Positions 9,811 through 27,106 are shown, counted from the first letter of the stretch. The stretch is DNA of 64,000 bases from Escherichia coli (GCF_013315695.1 NZ_CP054354.1), one strand, 5' to 3'. Numbers and translations are program-made. Notes: generated from the letters alone by a model not told the origin.

Positions 9811-10164
9811 TATTCTAATAACTGAATCCGCACACAGTCAAATGTCATTGTTGTGACTAAAAAACGCTCAATTCTCTGAGTGTGTGGCTGTATGCCTGCT
9901 GTGGGCTGCTGTGTCCAGCTTATCCACAGCATTTTGTGCACGGTTCTGTGGACAAAATACCTGGTTACCCAGGCCGTGCCGGCACGTTAACCGGGCTGCA
10001 TCCGATGCAAGTGTGTCGCTGTCGCCGGCCTCCTCACCCGGTCACGTTTCGTCGTTCCTCCTCCACGCGCTGCGGCTTCGGGGCCGCACCTGCATTCGTA
10101 TGCGGTCGCCCGGTAACAGGTGCGGCACGGCCTGATGGAGGCCGCATGTGAGAGGAGAATTCCC

Positions 10165-11091: not shown

Positions 11092-11103
11092 AGTATGACG
11101 GAG

Positions 11104-11130
11104 ACGGGCGGGCAACCGCCCGTTTCTTTT
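11104..11130 (+). terminator. Putative rho-independent terminator
   Basis: Stem acgggcgg / ccgcccgt with loop gcaa, followed by ttcttttcc. Confidence 0.4.
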
Positions 11131-11475
11131 CCGACAAAGGATGTCGCCGTGCTCCTCTTTTTACTGCGCCGGCTGACGCGGCGCGGCATAAACGCTGCCT
11201 GTGGTCAGTGTCCCGCGTCCGGCCGGGCACGGGACGGGCGCTTTTACCGCTCCCGGCTGGCGTCGGTGACAGTGTACGCCAGCCCGTCGCCCTTTTCTGA
11301 TGAACGCCCTTCAAGCCGCTTTCGCGGCATAGCCTTGCCGTCAGAAAGACGACGGCTGCGGTATTCCACGGTCGGCCTGACCCGTTACCGGACGCGGTGA
11401 ACAGCCCACAGGCAGCGGGGAACGGGCACCACAGGGGTGCCCTCCCGGTGCCCTCTGTAAGAGAAGGAGTTTGGT

Positions 11476-12159
11476 ATGTCCCGTTTTGTCCTCGGTAACT
11501 GCATCGATGTTATGGCCCGTATCCCTGATAACGCCATTGATTTCATCCTCACCGACCCGCCGTACCTCGTCGGTTTTCGTGACCGTCAGGGGCGTACCAT
11601 TGCCGGCGATAAAACCGATGAATGGCTGCAACCGGCCTGTAATGAGATGTACCGCGTACTCAAAAAAGACGCGTTAATGGTGAGCTTCTATGGCTGGAAT
11701 CGCGTCGATCGTTTTATGTCTGCCTGGAAAAATGCGGGATTCAGCGTTGTTGGTCACCTGGTCTTCACCAAAAACTACACATCGAAGGCCGCATATGTGG
11801 GCTATCGCCACGAATGTGCCTACATCCTGGCAAAAGGCCGTCCACGTCTGCCACAAAACCCGCTGCCGGACGTGCTGGGCTGGAAATATTCGGGCAATCG
11901 CCATCACCCGACGGAAAAGCCCGTTACCAGCCTGCAACCACTGATTGAGAGCTTCACACATCCGAACGCGATTGTGCTGGACCCGTTTGCAGGCAGCGGA
12001 TCAACCTGCGTGGCCGCTCTTCAGTCCGGACGCCGGTATATCGGTATCGAGCTGCTTGAACAGTATCACCGTGCCGGACAGCAACGACTGACCGCCGTGC
12101 AACGGGCCATGCAGCAGGGGGCCGCGAATGATAACTGGTTTGAACCGGAGGCTGCGTAA
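11476..12159 (+). CDS. Orphan DNA N6-adenine methyltransferase
   Basis: 227 aa with DPPY motif (ILTDPPYLVG) and AdoMet-binding FAGSGST; AAGGAG RBS; no adjacent restriction gene. Confidence 0.9.
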   Translation: MSRFVLGNCIDVMARIPDNAIDFILTDPPYLVGFRDRQGRTIAGDKTDEWLQPACNEMYRVLKKDALMVSFYGWNRVDRFMSAWKNAGFSVVGHLVFTKNYTSKAAYVGYRHECAYILAKGRPRLPQNPLPDVLGWKYSGNRHHPTEKPVTSLQPLIESFTHPNAIVLDPFAGSGSTCVAALQSGRRYIGIELLEQYHRAGQQRLTAVQRAMQQGAANDNWFEPEAA

Positions 12160-12873: not shown

Positions 12874-13644
12874 ATGAACGAAACGCTGAATGCACTGATT
12901 TGTCGCCACGCCCGTAACCTGCTGCTGGCGCAGGGCTGGCCGGAAGAGACGGATGTTGACCAGCGTAACCCGAAGTATCCGGGCTGGATCAGCATTTATG
13001 TTCTGCTGGATGCGCCCCGGCTGGCGACGTTACTTATCAACCGTCACGGCGGCGTACTGCCGCCGCTCCTGGCCTCTGCCATTCAGAAACTGACCGGAAC
13101 CGGGGCGGAACTTGTTCTGTCCGGCAGTCAGTGGCAGTCGCTGCCGGTACTTCCGGCAGACGGAACGCAGGTGTCTTTCCCGTATGCCGGAGAATGGCTG
13201 ACCGAAGACGAAATCAGGGCAGTTCTTGATGCGGTGCACGATGCGGTACGCAGTGTCAGTTGCCGGGTGGCAGAAGATGCGCGGCGTATCAGGGCGGCGC
13301 TGACCACAACCGGTCAGACGTTGCTGACCCGCCAGACGCGCCGCTTTCGCCTGGTTGTGAAGGAAAGCGATCACCCCTGCTGGCTCGATGAAGACGACGA
13401 AAACCTGCCCGTGGTGCTCGATGCCATCCTGAACCGGGGCGCTCGTTTTTCGTCGGTGGAAATGTATCTGGTCAGTGAGTGTGTGGAGCATATCCTGTCC
13501 AGTGGGCTGGCCTGCGATGTGCTGCGTATACCTGATGAACCGTCCCGTCGCTGGTTTGACCGGGATATTCTGCGGGAGGTGGTCCTGGAAGCCCGGACTG
13601 AAATCCGCAGCATGGCGGATGCACTGGCGAAAATCCGGAAATGA
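12874..13644 (+). CDS. Hypothetical leading-region protein (256 aa)
   Basis: Long ORF with backbone-like codon usage, no competing frame. Confidence 0.6.
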
Positions 13645-13700
13645 TGACGCTGGCGGGGAAAAATCTCCGCCTTTTCCAGCCGGTCCCCGGAAAGAGCAAA

Positions 13701-14040
13701 AGGATGTCGCCGCAGGCTCCGCTTTACCCGGCCATGCGGGGCATGGCCTTGTGGGTTTTCAGTTATGTGGCCTCAGCGCCGTGTGCGGGCTGTGCCGTGC
13801 CTCCATCGTAGCCGGGCTTCTGCGGGCGGGTTGCAAGGTAAGGTGAACCGCTGCGGTCACCCGGTCCCTCCTTCCCGTCTGCCGTGATTTTCCGGTCGTT
13901 CACCCGCTCAGATTTCGCGGTCTCACCCTTCAACTCCCGTCAGCCGTGCGCGTCAGGCTGCGGCTTCCCTTGCGCCCTTGCAACCCTGCAGGCCCGGCAA
14001 AGATGGAGGCACGGCACCGCCCGGTGTCGCGGAATATGTG
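13701..14040. repeat. GC-rich ~340-bp non-coding element, family A copy 1, immediately upstream of klcA
   Basis: Near-identical to 20650-20992; contains palindromes such as gccatgcggggcatggc; no supported ORF. Confidence 0.7.
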
Positions 14041-14059
14041 AACAACGGAGGAAAACATC

Positions 14060-14485
14060 ATGCAATATGCGAAACCTGTCACTCTGAACGTTGAAGAGTG
14101 CGACCGTCTGTCTTTTCTGCCTTACCTGTTTGGCCTGGATTTTCTGTATGCCGAAGCGTCTGTATACGCGCTGGCGAAAAAAATGATGCCGGAATATCAG
14201 GGAGGCTTCTGGCACTTCATCCGCCTGCCGGACGGTGGCGGTTACATGATGCCGGATGGCGACCGTTTCCACATGGTGAACGGTGCAAACTGGTTTGACC
14301 GTACCGTGAGTGCTGATGCCGCAGGCATCATCCTTACCTCCCTTGTGATTAACCGCCAGTTGTGGCTGTACCACGACAGCGGGGATGCAGGGTTGACACA
14401 CCTGTACAGGATGCGTGATGCGCAGTTGTGGAGCCACATCGAATTTCACCCCGAATGCAACGCGATTTACGCGGCACTTGACTGA
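14060..14485 (+). CDS. klcA: Antirestriction protein, KlcA/ArdB family
   Basis: 141 aa; FLPYLFG...[21 protein letters not shown]...SADAAGI matches the KlcA/ArdB pattern from memory; RBS aacggaggaaaa. Confidence 0.8.
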
Positions 14486-14531
14486 TTAACGGACGGGGCG
14501 GCAATGCCGCCCCTGTAAAGGAGACGAGAAC

Positions 14532-14954
14532 ATGTACTGTACTGTTAAAGAAATCATCCGCGATGTACTGGATACAGACGTGCCGGACAGTGAATGCGTT
14601 TTTGCCGTGGTGCTGACCCGTGGGGATGTGCGTCACATAGCCCAGGACTGGAACCTGTCAGACGATGAGCTGGAAACCGTCATGCAGCGACTGGACGATG
14701 CCTTTGAGCATGGTGCGGATGTCAGCGTTGTTCACGACGTTGTTCGTGAACTGATGGAAGAAAAGCGCGCCAGCCGTCATGTGACAGTCCCGGCGGTGAT
14801 GCTGGAAAAAGTGATGGCGCTGGCAGGCAGTGAAATGAAGCGCCTGTATGCCGTCGGGAGTGAGAACGGGGGCGACGGTGACGCATTCGTCAGGGAGGAA
14901 CGCGAAGCAATGGACGTTGTGTTACAGGCGCTGGACGGGGAGACGATGTCATGA
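14532..14954 (+). CDS. Hypothetical leading-region protein (140 aa); paralogue of 12395-12829
   Basis: RBS aaggagacgagaac-ATG nearly identical to that of 12395; acidic. Confidence 0.6.
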   Translation: MYCTVKEIIRDVLDTDVPDSECVFAVVLTRGDVRHIAQDWNLSDDELETVMQRLDDAFEHGADVSVVHDVVRELMEEKRASRHVTVPAVMLEKVMALAGSEMKRLYAVGSENGGDGDAFVREEREAMDVVLQALDGETMS

Positions 14955-15142
14955 ATATCAGCACAGAAACCCGCGAAATTCTGCGTAATTACAGGGCCGT
15001 GATTAATGCGCGGCGTCGTGAAATGGGGCAGAAACCGCTCACCACCGCGCAGATTGTTGATGAAATCTGCGATTTTGTGGCGAATCAGCAGGCGGTTTTC
15101 CTGGGCGGTCACTACATCCTTCAGGGCAGCAGAAACAGGTGA
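14951..15142 (+). CDS. Hypothetical small protein (63 aa)
   Basis: Start overlaps upstream stop (ATGTCATGA). Confidence 0.4.
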   Translation: MNISTETREILRNYRAVINARRREMGQKPLTTAQIVDEICDFVANQQAVFLGGHYILQGSRNR

Positions 15143-15342
15143 TACAGGGGCAGGCGGTGGAGGCCGCCTGTCAGCCCGCGCGAAAACCCCTGGCAGGCTG
15201 ACGCCTGCCGGAAACGCGGGGTGCAGCGCCTGCGGCGCTGCCGGCCCGGCTTTCCGGTCAGAAGGTAGTGTATGGCTGTATGCAGGGAACAGGAGTGATA
15301 TTCCGTGACACTGTCACCGTTTCTGGCTGTCTTTTATTGCGC

Positions 15343-15905
15343 CCACTTCGGCTCCCGGCTGCCTGGCGGCATCCGGTCGTCAGGCCCGACTCCGACGGGC
15401 AGCTGCTGGCGCACCCGCCAGTCTCCGCCGAACCCGCTGGCGCGGTTTCGGGCTGCCGCTACGGTCCGATGCGTGAAAACCCGGGCTTGCAGCGACCGTT
15501 CCGGTCGCGCCGCCCCTGTCGCGCCGTGACCTGCGCTCCCTGCACACCTGACGGTGTGTGAGGAAACTGCGCCTGATGGCGCAGCAGTCCTCCCTCCTGC
15601 CGCCCCCCCTGCGGCCTGTTTCCCCGCTGTGGACTTTCCGGGGGGCAGACGTAACCCCCTCCCGTTCCATCTGTCCAGGGTGAGATGCACCGGCCACAAA
15701 ATTTTTAGCCATGAACCCGGCAAAAAATTTTGCGTCCGCCCCCGGACAGCTGCCCCGTGAGGCGGTAAACGGGCCCCCATCGGAAAGGTCCACTGCGGGG
15801 AGAAACCCCTGTGAAGTGGACGGCAGGAGGAGCTTTCGCTCCTCTGAAGGGGCACATGAACGTCCCGTCGCCGGTATCCGGTTTATCTCACATCTTTCAG
15901 TCAGG
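15343..15905. repeat. GC-rich ~560-bp non-coding element, family B copy 1 (Frpo/ssi-like), upstream of ssb
   Basis: Repeated at 21690-22240 and partially at 25230-25600; hairpins such as ctgcgcc-tgat-ggcgcag; ORFs here lie on both strands without RBS. Confidence 0.65.
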
Positions 15906-15913
15906 AGGTTCTT

Positions 15914-16441
15914 ATGAGTGCACGTGGTATCAACAAGGTCATCCTCGTCGGGCGTCTGGGCAATGATCCGGAAGTCCGTTACATCCCCAACGGGGGCGCA
16001 GTGGCAAACCTGCAGGTGGCCACATCAGAAAGCTGGCGTGACAAACAGACGGGGGAGATGCGGGAGCAGACGGAATGGCACCGCGTGGTGCTGTTCGGCA
16101 AGCTCGCGGAAGTGGCAGGTGAATATCTGCGCAAGGGTGCGCAGGTCTACATCGAAGGTCAGCTTCGCACCCGTAGCTGGGAAGATAACGGTATCACCCG
16201 TTACGTCACTGAAATTCTTGTTAAGACCACGGGCACCGTGCAGATGCTGGGACGTGCACCACAGCAGAACGCTCAGGCGCAACCGAAGCCTCAGCAGAAT
16301 GGGCAGCCACAGAGTGCTGACGCGACGAAAAAAGGTGGCGCGAAAACGAAAGGCCGTGGACGTAAGGCCGCGCAGCCAGAGCCTCAGCCGCAACCGCCGG
16401 AGGGGGAGGATTACGGGTTTTCAGACGACATCCCGTTCTGA
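15914..16441 (+). CDS. ssb: Plasmid single-stranded DNA-binding protein
   Basis: 175 aa; OB-fold N-terminus ([18 protein letters not shown]), Gln/Pro-rich linker, acidic tail ending DDIPF; AGGAGG RBS. Confidence 0.95.
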
Positions 16442-16498
16442 TCGGGCTGACTGTGACAACCGCCCCGCCCTGTGCGGGGCATCACCGGAGATATGAGG

Positions 16499-16732
16499 AT
16501 GAGCGAATATTTCAGAATACTTCAGGGACTGCCGGACGGCTCCTTTACCCGCGAACAGGCGGAAGCCGTTGCCGCACAGCACCGGAACGTCTTTATCGAG
16601 GATGATCAGGGAACGCATTTTCGCCTGGTTGTCCGTCAGGATGGCACGTTGATCTGGCGCTCCTGGAATTTTGAGGACTGTGCCGGGTACTGGATGAACC
16701 AGTACATCAGGGATTTCGGGATTCTTAAGTAA
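16499..16732 (+). CDS. Hypothetical leading-region protein (77 aa)
   Basis: ATG at 16499 is 8 nt after GGAG (16487-16490); ORF track start 16472 is GTG without RBS. Confidence 0.5.
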
Positions 16733-16790
16733 GAGAGGTGCCGGACGCGCGAACGTCCGGCAGGACATAAGCAATTATAAGGGGATGATT

Positions 16791-18749
16791 ATGCCTGTAA
16801 CGAAGTGTGAACCAGAAACCACCCGCAAAGCAAGCCGTAAATCTGTAAAAACGCAGGAAACTGTCCTGTCTGCCCTGCTGGCGCAGACGGAGGAAGTGAG
16901 CGTGCCGCTGGCCTCGCTGATTAAATCACCGCTGAATGTGCGCACGGTGCCGTATTCTGCGGAGTCCGTCAGCGAACTGGCGGAGTCCATTAAGGGCGTC
17001 GGACTGCTGCAGAATCTGGTCGTGCATACCCTGCCTGGTGACCGTTACGCTGTCGCCGCAGGCGGTCGCCGACTGGCAGCACTCAACATGCTGGCAGAGC
17101 GCAACATCCTTCCGGCTGACTGGCCTGTACGCGTGAAGGTCATTCCGCAGGAGCTGGCGACTGCCGCATCGATGACCGAGAACGGTCAGCGTCGGGATAT
17201 GCACCCTGCCGAACAGATTGCCGGATTCCGCGCAATGGCGCAGGAAGGCAAAACACCTGCACAAATCGGTGATTTGCTGGGCTATTCACCCCGCCACGTT
17301 CAGCGAATGCTGAAACTGGCAGACCTTGCTCCGGTTATCCTCGATGCGCTGGCAGAAGACCGCATCACCACAGAGCACTGTCAGGCGCTGGCGCTGGAGA
17401 ACGACACCGCGCGTCAGGTGCAGGTGTTTGAAGCCGCCTGCCAGTCGGGATGGGGCGGTAAACCGGAAGTACAGACCATTCGTCGTCTGGTGACCGAAAG
17501 TGAAGTGGCGGTGGCGGGGAACAGTAAATTCCGCTTCGTGGGGGCTGATGCCTTCTCGCCAGACGAACTGCGCACCGATTTGTTCAGCGATGACGGGGAC
17601 GGTTATGTCGACCGCGTGGCGCTCGATGCCGCCCTGCTGGAAAAACTCCAGGCTGTCGCAGAGTTCCTTCGGGAAGCCGAAGGCTGGGAATGGTGCGCCG
17701 GACGCATGGAGCCTGTCGGTGAGTGCCGTGAAGATGCCCGGGCATACCGCAACCTGCCGGAGCCGGAAGCGGTGCTGACGGAGGCGGAAGACGAACGTCT
17801 GAACGAACTGATGGCTCGTTACGACTCGCTGGAAAACCAGTGTGAGGAATCTGACCTGCTGGCAGCAGAAATGAAGCTGATTGACTGCATGGCGAAGGTC
17901 AGGGCGTGGACGCCGGAGATGCGTGCCGGAAGTGGCGTGGTGGTGTCCTGGCGTTACGGTAATGTGTGTATCCAGCGTGGTGTGCAGTTGCGCAGTGAGG
18001 ATGATGTGGCTGACGACGCTGACCGCACGGAACAGGGGCTGGAGAGCGCGTCAGTGGAGGAAATTAGTCTGCCGTTGCTGACTAAATTGACCTCAGAGCG
18101 CACGCTGGCTGTCCAGGCAGCACTGATGCAGCAACCGGACAAATCCCTGGCACTGCTGGCATGGACGCTCTGCCTGAATGTGTTTGACAGCAAAGCGCAT
18201 AGTAGTCCCGCCAGAATTCGCCTGGAATGTGAGCATTATGCGCTGACCAGCGATGCACCGTCAGGGAAGGAAGGTGCCGCATTCATGGCGCTGATGGCAG
18301 AACACTCTCGTTTTGCTGCCCTGCTGCCGGAAGGATGGGAACGGGATATGACGACGTTCCTGTCACTTAGCCAGGAGGTGCTGTTATCCCTGCTCAGTTT
18401 CTGTACCGCGTGCAGTCTTAACGGTGTCCAGACCCGCGAGTGTGGTCACACGTCACGCAGTCCGCTGGACTCGCTGGAAACCGCCATCGGCTTTCACATG
18501 CGCGACTGGTGGCAGCCGACAAAAGCAAACTTCTTCGGACACCTGAAAAAGCCGCAGATTATCGCAGCCCTGAATGAGGCCGGACTGTCCGGTGCCGCAC
18601 GGGACGCGGAGAAAATGAAGAAAGGCGATGCGGCTGAACATGCAGAGTTCCATATGAAAGACAACCGCTGGGTGCCTGGCTGGATGTGTGCACCACGTCC
18701 ACAGACGGATGCCACTGAACACACCGCTAACCTGGCTGATGCCGCCTGA
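16791..18749 (+). CDS. ParB-like nuclease-domain protein of the leading region (~652 aa)
   Basis: N-terminal ParB/Srx-like segment (GLLQNLVVHTLPGDRYAVAAGGRRLAALNML); alternative ATG at 16785. Confidence 0.8.
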   Translation: MPVTKCEPETTRKASRKSVKTQETVLSALLAQTEEVSVPLASLIKSPLNVRTVPYSAESVSELAESIKGVGLLQNLVVHTLPGDRYAVAAGGRRLAALNMLAERNILPADWPVRVKVIPQELATAASMTENGQRRDMHPAEQIAGFRAMAQEGKTPAQIGDLLGYSPRHVQRMLKLADLAPVILDALAEDRITTEHCQALALENDTARQVQVFEAACQSGWGGKPEVQTIRRLVTESEVAVAGNSKFRFVGADAFSPDELRTDLFSDDGDGYVDRVALDAALLEKLQAVAEFLREAEGWEWCAGRMEPVGECREDARAYRNLPEPEAVLTEAEDERLNELMARYDSLENQCEESDLLAAEMKLIDCMAKVRAWTPEMRAGSGVVVSWRYGNVCIQRGVQLRSEDDVADDADRTEQGLESASVEEISLPLLTKLTSERTLAVQAALMQQPDKSLALLAWTLCLNVFDSKAHSSPARIRLECEHYALTSDAPSGKEGAAFMALMAEHSRFAALLPEGWERDMTTFLSLSQEVLLSLLSFCTACSLNGVQTRECGHTSRSPLDSLETAIGFHMRDWWQPTKANFFGHLKKPQIIAALNEAGLSGAARDAEKMKKGDAAEHAEFHMKDNRWVPGWMCAPRPQTDATEHTANLADAA

Positions 18750-18803
18750 TGAACAACCACACCGCCCCGCCGGAGACGGGGCGGCAGCAAGGGAGATACC
18801 GTG

Positions 18804-19238
18804 ATGAAAACTGAACTGACCCTGAATGCCCTGCAGTCCATGAACGCACAGGAATATGAAGATATCCGTGCTGCGGGAAGCGATATGCGCCGTAATCTCA
18901 CTCACGAGGTGATGCGTGAAGTGGACGCACCGGCTAACTGGGTGATGAACGGAGAGTATGGCAGTGAGTTCGGGGGCTTTTTCCCCGTCCAGGTTCGTTT
19001 CACGCCAGCCCACGAACGTTTCCACCTGGCATTATGTTCGCCGGGAGACGTCTCTCAGCTCTGGATGCTGGTTCTGGTGAATGGTGGTGGACAGCCTTTC
19101 GCCGTCGTTCAGGTGCAACATATCTTCACGCCTGTCGCGATCAGTCACACGCTGGCGCTTGCCGCGACACTGGATGCGCAGGGATACAGTGTTAACGACA
19201 TCATCCATATCCTGATGGCAGAAGGAGGTCAGGCATGA
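18804..19238 (+). CDS. psiB: Plasmid SOS inhibition protein PsiB
   Basis: [27 protein letters not shown]...[34 protein letters not shown] matches F PsiB as recalled; GGGAG RBS 8 nt upstream; GTG at 18801 used by the ORF track. Confidence 0.95.
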
Positions 19239-19954
19239 GCGCACGTTCACGGGCACTGATCCCCCTCAGCGCAGAACAACAGGCCGCCATGCAGGCGGTG
19301 GCTGTCACAGAACAACGTCGTCGTCAGGGACGCACACTTTCAGCATGGCCTTATGCCACCGCTTTCTTTCGCTGCCTGAATGGCAGTCGCCGGATTTCGC
19401 TGACCGATCTCCGCTTTTTTGCCCCTGCGCTGACGAAGGAGGAATTTCATGGCAACCGTCTCCTGTGGCTGGCTGCCGTGGATAAACTGATTGAAAGTTT
19501 TGGGGAAGTCTGTGTTCTTCCCCTGCCATCCGATGCGGGGCACCGTCTGTTCCCGTCCGTGCCTTTTCGTGAAGGTGAGCGTCGTCGTCAGAAAACCACG
19601 CTGACAGAGCAGAAATACAGCCGCCAGCGGGAACGTGAGGCAGAACGACGGGAACTGGAATACCAGACATGTTTTGCTCAGGCGCAGATTGACCTTGCGT
19701 TTCATACTCCCGCCACGGTCGGAAGCTGGTTGTCCCGCTGGTCTGGTGTTGTTGAGGAGCATGATCTGGAAACGATTTTCTGGGGGTGGTGCGGGCGTTT
19801 TCCATCACTGTCATCATTTGACCGGTTTTTCTGGCAGGAGGAACCACTCTGGCGGCTGATTTTTGAAGCCGGTGAGGCCGGTCGTGGTGCACCGGTACAG
19901 GTACGTGCACTTGAGCAGTGGATGATCCCGAACAAGCTGGAGAACGTAATATGA
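19235..19954 (+). CDS. psiA: PsiA
   Basis: 239 aa directly downstream of and overlapping psiB (ATGA), the conserved psiB-psiA arrangement. Confidence 0.85.
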
Positions 19955-20547
19955 TGAAATCAGACGAAAAATACCAGGTTCCCGCGTGGATGCGACCTCT
20001 GTTGCCGTTGCTCTGCAACACCGGGGGGAACGATCCGGAAGAACTGCTGAATGATACAGAAACCACTGCCAGTGCGAATGTTGTCCGTTATGTACTGATA
20101 GTTGCTGTGCGGTCGCAGGTTGATCTGCTGCAGCTTCTGTACAGGAAAGGGCTGTTGCGCACAGAGATACCAGGTGGCTTTTCACCGGAAGAAGCGCAGG
20201 CACTCCTGGATAATCTGGTGCGCAGCCATATCAGCAAGGCGCTGTCGGGCGAGCGAATGGCAGCCCGTGACAGAAATGCCGATCTGGCCTGGATTGGACA
20301 GCAACTGGTCGATGCCGCCTGGTTTGTCCGTGCCACACTGGAAGCGCATGGGATGAGCGTCGGAAATGAGAGTCCCCCTGCTCCGCCGGAGACAATGCCG
20401 GACATACAGACACGGGAACTGGTGATGTTGATCAAGCGACTGGCATCATCGCTGAAAGCGGTGAAACCGGACAGTTGTGTGGTGCGTGAAGCGCAGGACT
20501 GGCTGCGCGACAGAAAACTTGTGGATATCACAGATATTCTCCGGTGA
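19951..20547 (+). CDS. Hypothetical leading-region protein (198 aa)
   Basis: ATG overlaps psiA stop (ATATGA); ORF track start 19918 lies inside psiA. Confidence 0.55.
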   Translation: MMKSDEKYQVPAWMRPLLPLLCNTGGNDPEELLNDTETTASANVVRYVLIVAVRSQVDLLQLLYRKGLLRTEIPGGFSPEEAQALLDNLVRSHISKALSGERMAARDRNADLAWIGQQLVDAAWFVRATLEAHGMSVGNESPPAPPETMPDIQTRELVMLIKRLASSLKAVKPDSCVVREAQDWLRDRKLVDITDILR

Positions 20548-20649
20548 ACCAGGCATGTATATTTTACGCAGGGACATGCCGGTCATGATCGTTTCGTTCC
20601 AGGGGTGGTCTGGAGATCATGCGGTGTGCTCCCTGCTCTCGCCGGAATA

Positions 20650-20992
20650 AGGACGTCGCCGCCGGCTCCGCTTTTACCCGGCCATGCGGGGCATGGCCTT
20701 GTGGGTTTTCAGTTATGTGGCCGCCGTGTCGTGTGCGGGCTGTGCCGTGCCTCCATCGTAGCCGGGCTTCTGCGGGCGGGATGCAAGGTAAGATGAACCG
20801 CTGCGGTCACCCGGTCCCTCCTTCCCGTCTGCCGTGATTTTCCGGTCGTTCACCCGCTCAGATTTCGCGGTCTCACCCTCCAACTCCCGCCAGCCGTGTG
20901 CGTCAGGCTGCGGCTTCCCTTGCGCCCTTGCATCCCTGCAGGCCCGGCAAAGATGGAGGCACGGCACCGCCCGGTGTCGCAGAACATGTGAC
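20650..20992. repeat. GC-rich ~340-bp non-coding element, family A copy 2, immediately upstream of ardA
   Basis: Near-identical to 13701-14040 over ~330 bp. Confidence 0.7.
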
Positions 20993-21008
20993 TATGGAGG
21001 ATTCGGGA

Positions 21009-21509
21009 ATGTCTGTTGTTGCACCTGCTGTATACGTTGGAACCTGGCACAAATACAACTGTGGAAGCATCGCTGGCCGCTGGTTTGACCTGACAACGTT
21101 TGATGATGAACGCGACTTTTTCGCCGCCTGCCGTGCCCTTCACCAGGATGAAACCGACCCGGAACTGATGTTTCAGGATTATGAGGGATTCCCGGGGAAT
21201 ATGGCCTCTGAATGCCATATCAACTGGGCCTGGGTTGAAGGCTTCCGCCAGGCGCGGGATGAAGGCTGCGAAGAGGCTTATCGTCTCTGGGTGGATGATA
21301 CCGGTGAGACGGATTTTGACAGCTTCCGCGATGCCTGGTGGGGCGAGGCTGACAGTGAGGAGGCTTTTGCGGTTGAGTTCGTCAGTGATACCGGCCTGCT
21401 GGCTGACGTGCCGGAGACGGTGGCGCTCTATTTTGACTATGAGGCGTATGCGCGGGATTTATTCCTGGACTCCTTCACCTTTATTGACGGTCATGTGTTC
21501 CGTCGGTGA
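21009..21509 (+). CDS. ardA: Antirestriction protein ArdA
   Basis: 166 aa from ATG at 21009 (GGAGG RBS 20996-21000); MSVVAPAVYVGTWHKYNCGSIAGRWFDLTTFDDE and very acidic C-terminal half typical of ArdA DNA mimics. Confidence 0.85.
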   Translation: MSVVAPAVYVGTWHKYNCGSIAGRWFDLTTFDDERDFFAACRALHQDETDPELMFQDYEGFPGNMASECHINWAWVEGFRQARDEGCEEAYRLWVDDTGETDFDSFRDAWWGEADSEEAFAVEFVSDTGLLADVPETVALYFDYEAYARDLFLDSFTFIDGHVFRR

Positions 21510-21689: not shown

Positions 21690-22240
21690 CCTTCGGCTCC
21701 CGGCTGCCTGGCGGCATCCGGTCGTCAGGCCCGACTCCGACAGGCAGCTGCTGGCGCACCCGCCAGTCTCCGCCGAACCCGCTGGCGCGGTTTCGGGCTG
21801 CCGCTACGGTCCGATGTCTGAAAAACCAGGCTTGCAGCGACCGTTCCGGTCGCGCCGCCTCTGTCGCGCCGTGACCTGCGCTCCCTGCACACCTGACGGT
21901 GTGTAAGGAAACTGCGCCTGATGGCGCAGTTGTCTGCCCTTCCGCCGCCCCCCCTGCGGCCTGTTTCCCCGCTGTGGACTTTCCGGGGGCTGAAGCGGCC
22001 ACAACACGTTTCAGCCGTCCAGGGGAGAGATGTACCAGCCACAAAACTTTTTGCCGCAAGCGTCAAAAACTTTTGCGTCTGCCCCCGGACAACTGCCCCG
22101 TGCCGTGGCAGTCGCTGCCCCATCGGAAAGGTCCACTGCGGGGAGAAACCCCGAAGAAGTGGACGGCAGAAGGGGCTTTCGCCCCTCCGGGGGAGCAACC
22201 GGTCGGCCCGGCGACCTGATTCAGCAGAAGGAGACGTTTT
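21690..22240. repeat. GC-rich non-coding element, family B copy 2 (Frpo/ssi-like)
   Basis: Aligns with 15343-15905 along most of its length; ends at the RBS of the 22242 gene. Confidence 0.65.
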
Positions 22241-23035: not shown

Positions 23036-23211
23036 TTAACCCCTGCCGTCTGCCTGTGCAGGTGGCAGGATGTGTTCAGGTACTTTACCAGGAGGAACCG
23101 TGAGCAAGATGAAAAACATCACGACGTCTGTGTTGCATGGTGTCTCCACAAAAAACAGAAAAGGGAAACAGATTCTCTTTCATTCAGGGCCCGGGAGGGC
23201 TGGAGATAACA

Positions 23212-23601
23212 ATGAAGTCTTGTTTTGATACTGACAAAGCTTTTCATATGTCTTTTGATGAAGTCACTTTCAACGCTGACAGAATTCGCTCAAAACTGGA
23301 ACTATTATCCGAAGAACTAATGCCCCGTTGTGGTCTTGTTTATGAGCTATATCAGCGACGTTTGAGTGCTGCTATTGATAATTTTGTGGCCACATTGCCG
23401 ACAGAACAACATCTACTGGTCCTGGAACTGGCCCGTGAGGAGTTTGATTACCTTTCCGCAGAAGAGATTGCTGAAGAAATACGCCGTGACTCAGAACGCG
23501 GCTATTGTTGTCATGGCTTTGAACGCAATTGCTGTCCTCTCGGTTGTGGGGATTTGGGCGATGATTGCTGCGATGCTGCTGATTTGATGGAGGAACCGTG
23601 A
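23212..23601 (+). CDS. Hypothetical acidic protein with Cys-rich C-terminus (129 aa)
   Basis: GGAG RBS 23202-23205; C-terminal CCHGFERNCCPLGCGDLGDDCCD. Confidence 0.5.
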   Translation: MKSCFDTDKAFHMSFDEVTFNADRIRSKLELLSEELMPRCGLVYELYQRRLSAAIDNFVATLPTEQHLLVLELAREEFDYLSAEEIAEEIRRDSERGYCCHGFERNCCPLGCGDLGDDCCDAADLMEEP

Positions 23602-24512
23602 GTAAGAAGAAAAACACCACAACGCCCACGCCGCATGATGCCGCGTTCCGGTCGTTCCTGGCGAATCCCGACGTCGCCAGAGATTTTCTGGAACTGCATC
23701 TTCCTGCGGAGTACCGGCAGTTGTGCGACCTGTCCACGCTGAAGCTGGAACCCGCCACCTTTGTAGAGCCGGACCTGCATCAGTACGCCAGCGATATCCT
23801 CTGGAGCGTGAAAACCACCGGGGGTGAAGACGGCTATGTTTATACGCTCATCGAGCACCAGAGCACAGAAAATCTGTACATGCCTTTTCGCATGTTACGC
23901 TACAGTGTGGCGGCGATGCAGAGACATCTGGAGCAGCACAAAACGTTGCCACTGGTGATTCCGGTGCTGTTCTATCACGGTGAGCGCAGCCCGTACCCGT
24001 ACAGCATGAACTGGCTGGACTGTTTTGAGAATCCGGCACTTGCGGCTAAAATATACACAAAACCGTTTCCGCTGGTTGATATCACTGTCGTTGATGACAA
24101 TGAAATCATGAATCATCGCCGGATGGCCGCACTGACGCTGCTGATGAAGCATATCCGCCATCGTGACATGATGGAGCTGCTGGACAAACTCCCGCAGGTC
24201 ATGGTGGAAATTTCAGACGAGCAGGTGCGTGTTCTGATTCATTACATCGTTAACGCAGGGGACTCTGTATCACCGGAATTTATGCGGGCGCTGGCTGAGC
24301 GTCTGCCGCAGCATGAGGATAAACTGATGACTATCGCAGAACGTCTTGAGCAAAAAGGTCGCCAGGAAGGCAGGATGGAAGGACGCATGGAAGGAGCGCT
24401 TGAAAAAGCCCTGGCTATTGCGTGCCAGCTTCAGAAAATGGGGATGACGCCGGAGCAGATTAAGCAGGCTACCGGACTTTCCGATGACGAACTGAAGAAA
24501 ATCACTCACTGA
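23598..24512 (+). CDS. Rpn (YhgA-like) recombination-promoting nuclease, PD-(D/E)xK family
   Basis: 304 aa, GTG start after GGAGG; N-terminal PHDAAFRSFLANPDVARDFLELHLP and C-terminal QEGRMEGRMEG...MGMTPEQIKQATGLSDDELKK are characteristic of Rpn proteins as recalled. Confidence 0.8.
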   Translation: MSKKKNTTTPTPHDAAFRSFLANPDVARDFLELHLPAEYRQLCDLSTLKLEPATFVEPDLHQYASDILWSVKTTGGEDGYVYTLIEHQSTENLYMPFRMLRYSVAAMQRHLEQHKTLPLVIPVLFYHGERSPYPYSMNWLDCFENPALAAKIYTKPFPLVDITVVDDNEIMNHRRMAALTLLMKHIRHRDMMELLDKLPQVMVEISDEQVRVLIHYIVNAGDSVSPEFMRALAERLPQHEDKLMTIAERLEQKGRQEGRMEGRMEGALEKALAIACQLQKMGMTPEQIKQATGLSDDELKKITH

Positions 24513-24519
24513 TGAGAAC

Positions 24520-24552
24520 CGCAAAGCCCGGCAAAATCCCGGGCTTTTTTGC
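24520..24552 (+). terminator. Rho-independent terminator after rpn
   Basis: aaagcccggcaaaatcccgggctttttt: GC stem plus T-run. Confidence 0.6.
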
Positions 24553-24574
24553 CTGCAGGAGCAGAGCAAACAGC

Positions 24575-24745
24575 ATGACGATTGCAGAACGTCTTATACA
24601 GAAAGGTTTTGAAAAAGGTGCTCTTGAAGTGGCGCGGGAAATAGCCTGCCGGCTGCGGGATATGGGCTGGACGCCGGAACGGATTCAGGAGGCGACCGGA
24701 CTTTCCGGTGAAGAACTGAAAAAGCTGTTTCCTGATGAGCAGTAG
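24575..24745 (+). CDS. Free-standing Rpn C-terminal-domain paralogue (RpnS-like small protein, 56 aa)
   Basis: MTIAERLIQKGFEKGALEVAREIACRLRDMGWTPERIQEATGLSGEELKK parallels the rpn C-terminus MTIAERLEQKG...; begins after the rpn terminator; weak RBS. Confidence 0.45.
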   Translation: MTIAERLIQKGFEKGALEVAREIACRLRDMGWTPERIQEATGLSGEELKKLFPDEQ

Positions 24746-25140: not shown

Positions 25141-25229
25141 GATGTCGTGCTGTTTTCTCTGTTTTCACCTGTGCGGGAGTGGGTGTCAGTGACCACCACA
25201 TGCCATTGTTGTGCCGTCGTTTTTCTTCA

Positions 25230-25600
25230 GTCGCGCCGGATGCAGCGCTCCCTGCACACCTTACGGTGTGTAAGGCCACTGCGCCTGATGGCGCAGCTGT
25301 CTCTGCCTGTCTGCCGCCGCACTGCGGCCTGTTCTCCGCAGACGGACTTTCCGGGGAACATACACGACCACATCCCGTTTCAGTTATCCAGGGGAGAGAT
25401 GTACCAGCCACAAAACTTTTTGCCGCAGGCGTCAAAAACTTTTGCGTCTGCCCCCGGACAACTGCCCCGTGACGTGGTGAGCATCCCCCGTCGGAAAGGT
25501 CCACTGCGGGGAAATCCCCGAAGACCCGGACGGCAGAAGGAGCTTCGCTCCTCCGGGAAATGACCTGGCTGACCCGGCAGTCGTGACGATGAGGAGACAA
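25230..25600. repeat. GC-rich non-coding element, family B copy 3 (partial, 3' ~370 bp)
   Basis: Aligns with the 3' part of 15343-15905 and 21690-22240; ends at the RBS of the 25605 gene. Confidence 0.6.
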
Positions 25601-26989: not shown

Positions 26990-27065
26990 AGGCTATAATG
27001 GACTGAAAAACGGGACAGGATGTGTAATCGTATAACCGCGCACGCACGGCTATACGATTACCACC
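26990..27065 (-). other. oriT core: MOBP-type nic site ATCCTG|T on the minus strand (nick between 27016 and 27015) plus 11-bp inverted repeat
   Basis: Minus strand reads cacATCCTG|TCCCGTTTTTC; inverted repeat GTAATCGTATA...TATACGATTAC at 27024-27061, 7-8 nt from the nick; sits just upstream of nikA-nikB. Confidence 0.75.
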
Positions 27066-27106
27066 TGGTCAGGGCTTAGCCCCGACACCCCGGTAAGGAG
27101 CAGACC

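Follow-up and report, generated by a model that had tools for sequence, protein, structure and literature searches.

Class 2 single-stranded DNA (ssDNA) promoters are an already known type of element, having been described and experimentally mapped in 2025-2026 in the plasmids pESBL and F. In the IncI1 plasmid pESBL they drive klcA and ardA from start sites mapped by 5' RACE, and the published starts matched hairpin-promoter predictions for all six promoters of that plasmid (NAR Dec 2025, PMC12672017). Genes of the pESBL leading region show up to ~500-fold early induction in fresh transconjugants (zygotic induction), are shut off as the DNA turns double-stranded and have a prolonged induction in uvrD recipients (PMC12672017). 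The F promoter ssp2, which lies between yffB and yfgB, drives the ArdB/KlcA homologue yfgB and stalls complementary-strand synthesis at the base of its stem, independently of transcription, until UvrD resolves the block (bioRxiv Jan 2026, 10.64898/2026.01.09.698686). Deletion of ssp2 lowered transfer of F into restricting hosts, and its replacement by ssp3, which acts as a promoter but not as a roadblock, restored transfer against a type II system in full (10.64898/2026.01.09.698686). Transcripts from the class 1 promoter Frpo serve as primers of DNA synthesis in vitro, a role that also has support in vivo; such priming is reported for ssp1 but not for ssp2 (10.64898/2026.01.09.698686).

Here we describe a pair of repeats in a 64,000-nucleotide stretch of Escherichia coli DNA (GCF_013315695.1, NZ_CP054354.1; hereafter the window). 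The window represents the leading region of a conjugative plasmid of the IncK2/Z type (I-complex); it is fully syntenic with that of pESBL and also syntenic with ColIb-P9. The genes klcA, ssb, psiB, psiA and ardA all lie on the plus strand, the two repeat copies flank ssb-psiB-psiA, and nikA and the relaxase gene are found at 27.1 kb (Table 1). The nick motif, which we take to be such from the MOBP-type nick consensus, is on the minus strand; the minus strand is thus the transferred strand (T-strand), and the region below ~27 kb would therefore enter the recipient first. This strand is the template for both klcA and ardA, which are 13.0 kb and 6.0 kb, respectively, from the nick (~27.0 kb). 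Each repeat is very probably a class 2 ssDNA promoter that allows its antirestriction gene to be expressed before the complementary strand is made.

Table 1. Features of the two repeat copies and their surroundings (positions in the window).
Feature	Position	Strand	Details and basis
Repeat copy 1, probable class 2 ssDNA promoter unit 5' of klcA	13700..14040	-	boundaries, identity; functional strand would be the transferred (minus) strand
Small conserved stem-loop GGCCATGC-GGG-GCATGGCC, upstream part of repeat	13730..13748	.	copy 2: 20680-20698
Copy 1 long hairpin	13786..14023	-	~44-bp promoter stem and ~150-nt imperfectly paired apical domain; MFE -92.9 kcal/mol, z -4.4; covariation
Copy 1 -10 box TACGAT, 3' arm, predicted to act as non-template	13805..13810	-	stem drawing; T-12 and C-10 mismatched against opposite arm
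Copy 1 -35-like box TTGCAA, 3' arm	13831..13836	-	20 nt from -10, 6 of these bulged
Copy 1 promoter positions as duplex	13978..14004	+	TTGCAA, 15-nt spacer, AAAGAT; poor sigma-70 promoter
Predicted klcA transcription start	14010..14013	+	~7 nt past -10, from box positions; ~49-nt 5'UTR
klcA/ardB-type antirestriction gene	14060..14485	+	RBS GGAGG at 14047-14051
Repeat copy 2, probable class 2 ssDNA promoter unit 5' of ardA	20650..20992	-	boundaries, identity
Copy 2 long hairpin	20736..20973	-	MFE -93.9 kcal/mol; predicted start ~20961
Copy 2 boxes, 3' arm	20755-20760; 20781-20786	-	-10 TACGAT; -35 TTGCAT
ardA antirestriction gene	21009..21509	+	RBS GGAGG at 20996-21000
oriT core	27010..27075	-	inverted repeat and nick motif ...CATCCTG/TCCCG; sequence; nikA/nikB synteny with ColIb-P9 and pESBL

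The initial annotation had described a palindrome-rich element of ~340 bp, duplicated exactly upstream of klcA and ardA. The two copies are near-identical rather than exact: alignment of 13700-14040 with 20650-20992 gives 95.0% identity (326 of 343 columns, with 14 mismatches and 3 gap columns), and a repeat search returns 97% identity across 300 nt (13723-14022 against 20673-20972). Similarity starts at 13700 and breaks off at 14040, where identity in 20-nt windows falls from 18-20 to 5, in agreement with the ends originally proposed. Each copy ends ~20 nt upstream of the start codon of its antirestriction gene. The last ~20-25 nt before the start codons, RBS included, are gene-specific: klcA copies taken from different plasmids agree at 97% there, and the figure for klcA against ardA is ~40%. 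The RBS accordingly lies just outside the repeat, which slightly amends the view that each copy ends at the RBS. Both copies are indeed palindrome-rich, carrying inverted arms of 32 nt that are 174 nt apart, show 91% complementarity and extend to a ~44 bp stem. No further copies were found in the window, and blastn against the second repeat family present there (family B, see below) gave zero matches at E<=1, so that the two families are distinct, as had been thought.

Folding the minus strand as ssDNA, as had been proposed, yields a hairpin of ~240 nt in each copy. The transferred-strand fold is supported by covariation: in an alignment of 18 homologues, pairing holds in 97.2% of cells and double changes are found at 19 pairs, compared with 4.2±1.3 such pairs in shuffled controls (0/500) and never more than 6 when the alignment was slid. 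Every sequence (18/18) folds more stably as the T-strand than as its complement, and the consensus fold has 66 pairs (-35.8) on the T-strand and 46 pairs (-24.4) on the plus strand, although with flanks included both strands fold almost equally (plus strand -89.3 kcal/mol, z -4.4). We also considered the count of G.T versus A.C wobbles as a test of the folding strand (42 versus 3 on the T-strand), but a mirror control returned the mirrored bias. Because this count is confounded by the strand used for prediction, the 18/18 energy asymmetry was the only strand evidence that we retained.

The good fold of the plus strand could be taken to mean that the structure acts in RNA, as part of a long 5' leader transcribed from upstream (an attenuator, riboswitch or processing site) that controls klcA and ardA, and such an arrangement would be in keeping with the upstream edge of the repeat, where a T-rich stretch follows a small hairpin. 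However, the plus strand has the weaker consensus fold and every homologue folds better as the T-strand, while the single hit in an Rfam 15 scan of 9000-30000 was to astro_FSE at 19471-19523, at the level of chance (E 0.9; 19 bits, with a gathering threshold of 70). Furthermore, the conservation of TAnnnT and TTGCAx is intelligible only if these boxes are promoter elements in DNA, and the pESBL starts fit a hairpin-promoter model in which most of the hairpin is untranscribed (PMC12672017). We therefore consider control at the RNA level to be highly improbable. The small upstream hairpin itself shows compensatory stem changes (columns 333/344 and 334/343) and might conceivably serve as a terminator of the upstream operon, which would be a weak assignment: a consensus scan found the terminator-like match there to be no commoner than chance, and its RNA fold z-scores are only -1.1 and -0.4.

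The sequence of the stem points instead to a promoter that is formed in ssDNA. The T, A and final T of the TAnnnT -10 pattern on the 3' arm are invariant in 18/18 homologues. The spacer on the non-template arm is 20 nt in the window and 15 nt in F, ColIb and pESBL, so that neither variant has the canonical 17 nt. A conventional double-stranded promoter, whose palindromes would be repressor operators and whose burst of expression after transfer would reflect escape from repression, deserves consideration here, as palindromes are typical of operators and the duplex keeps TTGCAA and the A-11/T-7 hexamer AAAGAT. The klcA genes of IncP plasmids are repressor-controlled, which also counts for such an arrangement. 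Against it, a consensus scan found no conventional sigma-70 duplex promoter in either copy (a result that cannot prove inactivity), and the spacer of the duplex measures 15 nt. A distance of 174 nt between the arms and compensatory changes along a ~240-nt structure are what would be expected of intrastrand pairing rather than of short operators. The homologous promoters, moreover, are shut off upon duplex formation and are induced for longer in uvrD recipients (PMC12672017). Taken together, we judge repression of a duplex promoter to be very unlikely.

By homology to pESBL and F, we propose the following sequence of events for the ssDNA promoter. With its 5' end leading, the minus strand would pass into the recipient from the nick near 27.0 kb and, while it is single-stranded, its arms would pair (13786-13838 with 13975-14023, and 20736-20788 with 20925-20973) to give a pseudo-duplex that mimics double-stranded promoter DNA. 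The 3' arm would act as the non-template strand, offering TTGCAA or TTGCAT as the -35 element and TACGAT as the -10 element, with the 5' arm as template; the partial mismatch at the -10 should aid opening. Host sigma-70 RNA polymerase is predicted to start near 14011 and 20961 and to read out through the base of the hairpin into klcA and ardA, such that antirestriction proteins would be produced ahead of complementary-strand synthesis. Synthesis of the complement would then remove the hairpin and, given that TTGCAA-15 nt-AAAGAT is a poor duplex promoter, switch expression off. As for F ssp2, the stable hairpin probably stalls complementary-strand synthesis until it is unwound by UvrD, and stalling would lengthen the single-stranded window. 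Transcription from ssDNA, the start sites, the shut-off and the roadblock would all carry over from the two studied plasmids by homology. The strength of the promoter, its start site and its roadblock behaviour could nevertheless differ from those of the studied variants, because the -35/spacer stem is only 53-66% identical to theirs and bulges on the opposite arm.

The part of the hairpin beyond the promoter stem raises the question of whether DNA replication, through an ssi priming site or a pure roadblock, might be the primary role, with promoter activity secondary. The apical domain (130 nt, G+C-rich; T-strand composition A 33, C 31, G 56, T 10, i.e. 43% G and 8% T) is conserved at 93% mean pairwise identity despite lying outside the promoter boxes. 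That conservation, the priming of DNA synthesis by class 1 Frpo transcripts and the transcription-independent stall at F ssp2 would all be in keeping with a replicative function. On the other hand, priming has been reported for ssp1 and not for ssp2, and because ssp3, which lacks the roadblock, rescues transfer when put in place of ssp2 in F, promoter activity matters in its own right. A primarily replicative role is accordingly extremely unlikely, and this idea is one that complements the promoter explanation rather than excluding it. The suggestion of a 'single-strand initiation element' in the initial annotation calls for a caveat: initiation by priming has been shown for class 1/Frpo, not for class 2, for which a roadblock was found in F. 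We also searched for a G-quadruplex in the apical T-strand as a possible roadblock mechanism, and found eight G3 tracts and zero canonical G4 motifs. The predicted stability of the window's hairpins (-74.7 and -74.0 kcal/mol) is similar to that of the F core (-80.2).

Open reading frames run through the repeats on both strands, as was noted at the outset, and long stretches without a stop codon are usual in GC-rich DNA. In one Salmonella record an ORF of 190 aa has been drawn across the element, which would suggest that the repeats encode a small conserved protein (a 'DUF1472 domain-containing protein' or 'hypothetical protein'). However, none of the frames is conserved among homologues, in which the longest open frame switches both frame and strand and the indels are not multiples of three. 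The annotated ORF maps across two frames in copy 1 and three in copy 2, overlaps both flanking genes and matches nothing in current Pfam, even at E<=10, and its Arg/Pro/Cys/Trp-rich composition is that of out-of-frame GC-rich DNA. The probability that the repeats are coding is therefore close to nil. We likewise reject 'DUF1472' as a real protein family, given the lack of a Pfam match and a frame that is broken in the window, and regard the 'hypothetical protein' and 'DUF1472' ORFs annotated through these regions as artefacts.

The element family is present in at least 5000 sequenced enterobacterial plasmids. Among the copies that we sampled, every full-length one precedes a KlcA/ArdB-type or an ArdA gene, in line with the proposal of an element dedicated to antirestriction genes. 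That proposal had called it a portable promoter; the promoter part of the term is upheld by the pESBL and F homologues. A mobile element (a MITE- or REP-like 'portable' unit) is not supported, since all copies keep to one syntenic position and the window holds no others. Overall, the interpretation first placed on these repeats is supported as essentially right, for a type of element that is already known. When genomes were scanned at species level for the -10 stem pattern, no more than 12 loci emerged, all of them close variants that added little new diversity. Three minor new points arise: the -35/spacer stem is hypervariable among homologues, there is evidence for concerted evolution of the two copies in each plasmid, and elsewhere in the window a related mini-hairpin at 9974-10130 is a possible candidate for a seventh ssDNA promoter hairpin. 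A joint reading of these observations, which we put forward tentatively and think somewhat doubtful, is that the fast-evolving -35/spacer stem is a tuning module, in which the opposite-arm bulge of the window's variant could set a different promoter or roadblock strength; gene conversion within each plasmid would hold the klcA and ardA versions of the variant identical. The mini-hairpin would then be a seventh ssDNA promoter, hitherto unreported, in the leading regions of I-complex plasmids and F, and would drive the DUF1281 gene.

With hairpin promoters of this kind, a conjugative plasmid can have its antirestriction proteins produced in the first minutes after entry, while the DNA is not yet double-stranded, and such early antirestriction is one reason why resistance plasmids cross strain barriers so efficiently. 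To this picture the window adds an IncK2/Z lineage with a distinct stem variant, evidence for homogenisation within a plasmid and a candidate extra hairpin.

The early promoters of phage N4 are hairpin promoters that are used by the phage's own virion RNA polymerase and consist of short hairpins extruded from supercoiled duplex. The likeness to the present elements is an analogy only: in both, an intrastrand DNA hairpin defines the promoter and genes of injected DNA are expressed right after entry, but N4 uses neither host sigma-70 holoenzyme nor a hairpin of ~240 nt. The class 1 promoters Frpo and ssi1-3 share the principle of the present elements, being leading-region T-strand hairpins that mimic duplex -35 and -10 elements and are active only as ssDNA (Masai & Arai 1997; Bates et al. 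1999). Copies of this class make up family B in the window (15346-15870, 21691-22213 and 25227-25555). In class 1 the apical hairpin is A/T-rich, adjoins the -35 and has been called UP-like, and the transcripts reportedly prime DNA synthesis; in class 2 the apical domain is long and G+C-rich, and DNA synthesis is stalled. We considered and rejected class 1 membership for the klcA and ardA repeats, which have no such A/T-rich apical hairpin and no detectable sequence similarity to F ssiD/Frpo or ColIb-P9 ssi1-3. Frpo' 4 and the more distant Frpo*1 and Frpo*3 are bioinformatic candidates from an insect-gut metagenome (Samuel et al. 2024, Nature, PMC11541004, Supplementary Table 2). Over ~340 nt, Frpo' 4 has 79% identity to each of the two copies, and an Erwinia dacicola copy is nearly identical to it. 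Frpo*3 shares the stem layout and the GCCCGGC-TAnnnT core with the window; the -35/spacer stems of all three candidates are unlike those found here.

The closest relatives are the class 2 promoters of pESBL and F. By blastn, copy 1 is 89.2% identical to the pESBL element upstream of klcA over 380 columns, and copy 2 is 89.4% identical to that upstream of ardA over 379 columns. The two plasmids have in common the same two positions, two mutually similar copies per plasmid, and a large T-strand stem-loop with TTGCAx and TAnnnT on its 3' arm. They differ in the -35/spacer segments of both arms, which in the window have 53-66% identity to the F/ColIb type that pESBL resembles, and in the extra spacer nucleotides, which bulge from the non-template arm in the window but, in pESBL, from the template arm. 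They also belong to different plasmid types, IncK2/Z for the window and IncI1 for pESBL. The hairpin cores are 88.2% and 89.4% identical to F L002:6343-6758 (ssp2); the published ssp2-specific primer maps to L002:6175-6197, ~150 nt upstream of the aligned F copy. The roadblock and its dependence on UvrD have been shown for the F variant only. As F lacks ardA, it has a single copy where the window has two, and in both plasmids an element of this type, 88% identical over the hairpin core, stands upstream of a KlcA/ArdB homologue.

The ~340-bp family A repeat, which precedes klcA (copy 1) and ardA (copy 2), had been described in the initial annotation as an exact duplication. The copies are near-identical, with 97% identity across 300 nt in a repeat search of the window (13723-14022 versus 20673-20972), but they are not exact: over the full extent originally annotated, identity drops to 95.0% (14 mismatches, three gap columns). 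In a sliding comparison using copy 1 coordinates, similarity begins at 13700 and collapses at 14040. The final ~20-25 nt upstream of the start codons, including the RBS, are gene-specific in klcA and ardA alike, being 97% identical among klcA copies of different plasmids and ~40% identical between the klcA and ardA versions. The palindromes remarked upon earlier were recovered by repeat search as 32-nt inverted arms spaced by 174 nt in both copies, and sequence comparison detected no similarity to the family B repeats, from which family A had been held to be distinct.

Copy 1 is a 100% match to E. coli plasmid p86 (NZ_CP023387; IncK2/Z, MOBP, MPF_I). Copy 2 (20728-20980) differs slightly from its p86 counterpart (20593-20845), these being 97.6% and 97.2% identical to copy 1, respectively; the window thus derives from a plasmid very closely related to p86 rather than from p86. 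The annotated gene order (umuDC, DUF1281, methylase, klcA-type antirestriction, ssb, parB-like, psiB, psiA and ardA, with nikA and the relaxase gene farther on) is fully syntenic with ColIb-P9 and pESBL, and the region is the leading region of an I-complex plasmid. The nick was placed using the MOBP-type nick consensus. As the nicked strand is the minus strand, it is this strand that is transferred, 5′-first toward lower coordinates; it is also the template for all of the plus-strand leading genes. Downstream of ardA, short direct repeats (D7, D10 and D12; 75-82% identity, spacing 224-498 nt) lie within and between ORFs at 23091-23640 and 24327-24723, resembling the starts of tandem paralogous genes that have diverged.

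Hairpins, repeats and transfer origin in the window (the slash marks the nick)
Feature	Position	Strand	Properties
Mini-hairpin, ~157 nt	9974-10130	minus (T-strand)	-46.7 kcal/mol; mononucleotide-shuffle z -3.2
Class 3 hairpin, 5′ of methylase gene at 11476	11193-11417	minus	-100 kcal/mol; z -6.6; 98% identical to pESBL
Family A copy 1 hairpin, outer pair	14023/13786	minus	-92.9 kcal/mol; z -4.4
Family B	15346-15870		98% identity to ColIb-P9 ssi3
Family A copy 2 hairpin, outer pair	20973/20736	minus	-93.9 kcal/mol; z -4.4
Family B	21691-22213		87% identity to ColIb-P9 ssi2
Family B	25227-25555		98% identity to ColIb-P9 ssi1
oriT inverted repeat and MOBP-type nick motif	~27010-27075	minus (nicked)	reverse complement reads ...ATTACACATCCTG/TCCCG

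For each family A copy, ssDNA folding of the minus strand gives one long hairpin, whose predicted basal stem of ~44 bp has a promoter-like layout. The 3′ arm reads, 5′ to 3′, TTGCAA (TTGCAT in copy 2), 20 nt and TACGAT; six nucleotides of the spacer are bulged, and two bases of the TACGAT -10 box are mismatched against the opposite arm. Read as duplex, the same positions give TTGCAA-15 nt-AAAGAT, and neither copy yielded a duplex sigma-70 promoter in a consensus scan. If the 3′ arm of the stem is the non-template strand and the 5′ arm the template, transcription by RNA polymerase would run out through the hairpin base toward klcA or ardA, from predicted starts near 14011 or 20961, respectively, with a leader of ~49 nt.

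Three ColIb-P9 ssi/Frpo sequences and F ssiD (Supplementary Table 2, Samuel et al., 2024; PMC11541004) served as a reference set. Within the window these matched family B only and, judged by those matches, the family B repeats are classic class 1 ssDNA promoters. The sole match of family A in the Samuel et al. set was a bioinformatic candidate, Frpo′ 4 (79%). In pESBL, six hairpin promoters lie 5′ of six zygotically induced operons (NAR, December 2025; PMC12672017), and its class 2 elements occupy the same positions as the window copies, with 89% identity between them. The F homologue, ssp2, drives yfgB, an ArdB homologue; its stem end stalls complementary-strand synthesis, an effect that does not require transcription, UvrD resolves the element, and transfer of F without ssp2 to restricting hosts is reduced (January 2026 preprint, bioRxiv 10.64898/2026.01.09.698686). 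The preprint's ssp2 primer lies just upstream of the aligned F copy, which is 88% identical to the window's. Based upon these identities, the original proposal of a portable promoter or single-strand initiation element dedicated to antirestriction genes is essentially correct and the element has already been described; family A is very probably a member of the known class 2 ssDNA promoter family.

We also considered, and rejected, family A as a protein gene: no frame is kept, and the longest open frames differ in frame and strand among homologues. A conserved protein in homologues, named at the outset as evidence against a promoter, was not found. The 'DUF1472 domain-containing protein' ORF of Salmonella pN17S1598 (625-1197) corresponds to window 13517-14084 and overlaps both flanking genes. 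In the window it is broken into two frames in copy 1 and three in copy 2, and it has no match in current Pfam. On sequence grounds, this ORF is an artefact of annotation, the conserved element beneath it being non-coding.

Alignment of 18 T-strand sequences (the strand transferred in conjugation) gives a consensus hairpin with 97.2% of cells paired. Compensatory double changes affect 19 pairs, versus 4.2±1.3 in shuffled alignments (0/500) and at most six with slid partners, and T, A and the final T of the -10 box are invariant. The T-strand fold is stabler than its complement in 18/18 sequences (means -73.0 versus -64.1 kcal/mol); a wobble-pair count was confounded as a strand test and was dropped. 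Among 16 sequences, mean pairwise identity is 97% in the lower stem, 95% in GCCCGGC plus the -10 box and 93% in the apical domain. The -35/spacer portion is only 63-73% identical in both arms yet still paired. Conservation is modular.

At least 5000 plasmids in PLSDB, from Escherichia, Klebsiella, Salmonella and Shigella, carry the element, with more divergent forms in Enterobacter, Citrobacter, Raoultella, Klebsiella oxytoca/michiganensis and insect symbionts. In every full-length case examined the next gene encodes a KlcA/ArdB-type antirestriction protein, sometimes followed by ardA; contigs L022 and L009 carry a single class 2 element and then klcA directly followed by ardA in one operon. 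In Ca. Erwinia dacicola (L020) element DNA is 79% identical versus only 46% for KlcA protein, and in L016, L019, L020 and L022 alike conservation is higher in the non-coding promoter element than in the gene under its control. The enterobacterial element, at 89-99% identity, is also present in short contigs assigned to Streptomyces morookaense (L011) and to Oscillospiraceae, Collinsella and Lachnospiraceae MAGs (L012-L015, L021). It is followed by klcA in L011-L015, with 96-99% amino-acid identity for complete genes (L015 ends 14 codons in); in L021 the element breaks off after ~130 nt and klcA is absent downstream. Contamination, or mis-binning of plasmid contigs, most likely accounts for these occurrences.

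Two further leading-region hairpins were found. That at 11193-11417 is the counterpart of the M.EcoGIX class 3 ssDNA promoter already published; a 'hypothetical protein' ORF running across it (11095-11400) is probably spurious. The mini-hairpin precedes the DUF1281 gene (strong RBS, ATG at ~10164), and the class 2 layout recurs on its 3′ arm as TTGCAT-15 nt-TAACGT followed by GCCGGCACGG. It is conserved in pESBL and ColIb-P9 (99-100%) and F (98%), and resembles the low-certainty Frpo*1 (Samuel et al., 2024). It falls outside the set of six ssDNA promoters described from pESBL (PMC12672017), and this candidate may be a seventh.

Finally, in the three plasmids compared, the copy at klcA and the copy at ardA of any one plasmid have the same stem variant. 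Their identity is higher within plasmids (97.6%, 99.2% and 99.2%) than between them (86.6-96.8%), which indicates that these direct repeats, 6.9 kb apart, have been homogenised. In F, ColIb-P9, pESBL and Klebsiella variants the extra spacer nucleotides bulge from the template arm, whereas in the window variant they bulge from the non-template arm. Modular conservation, bulge side and copy homogenisation extend the published account of these promoters only slightly, and do not make this a new kind of element.
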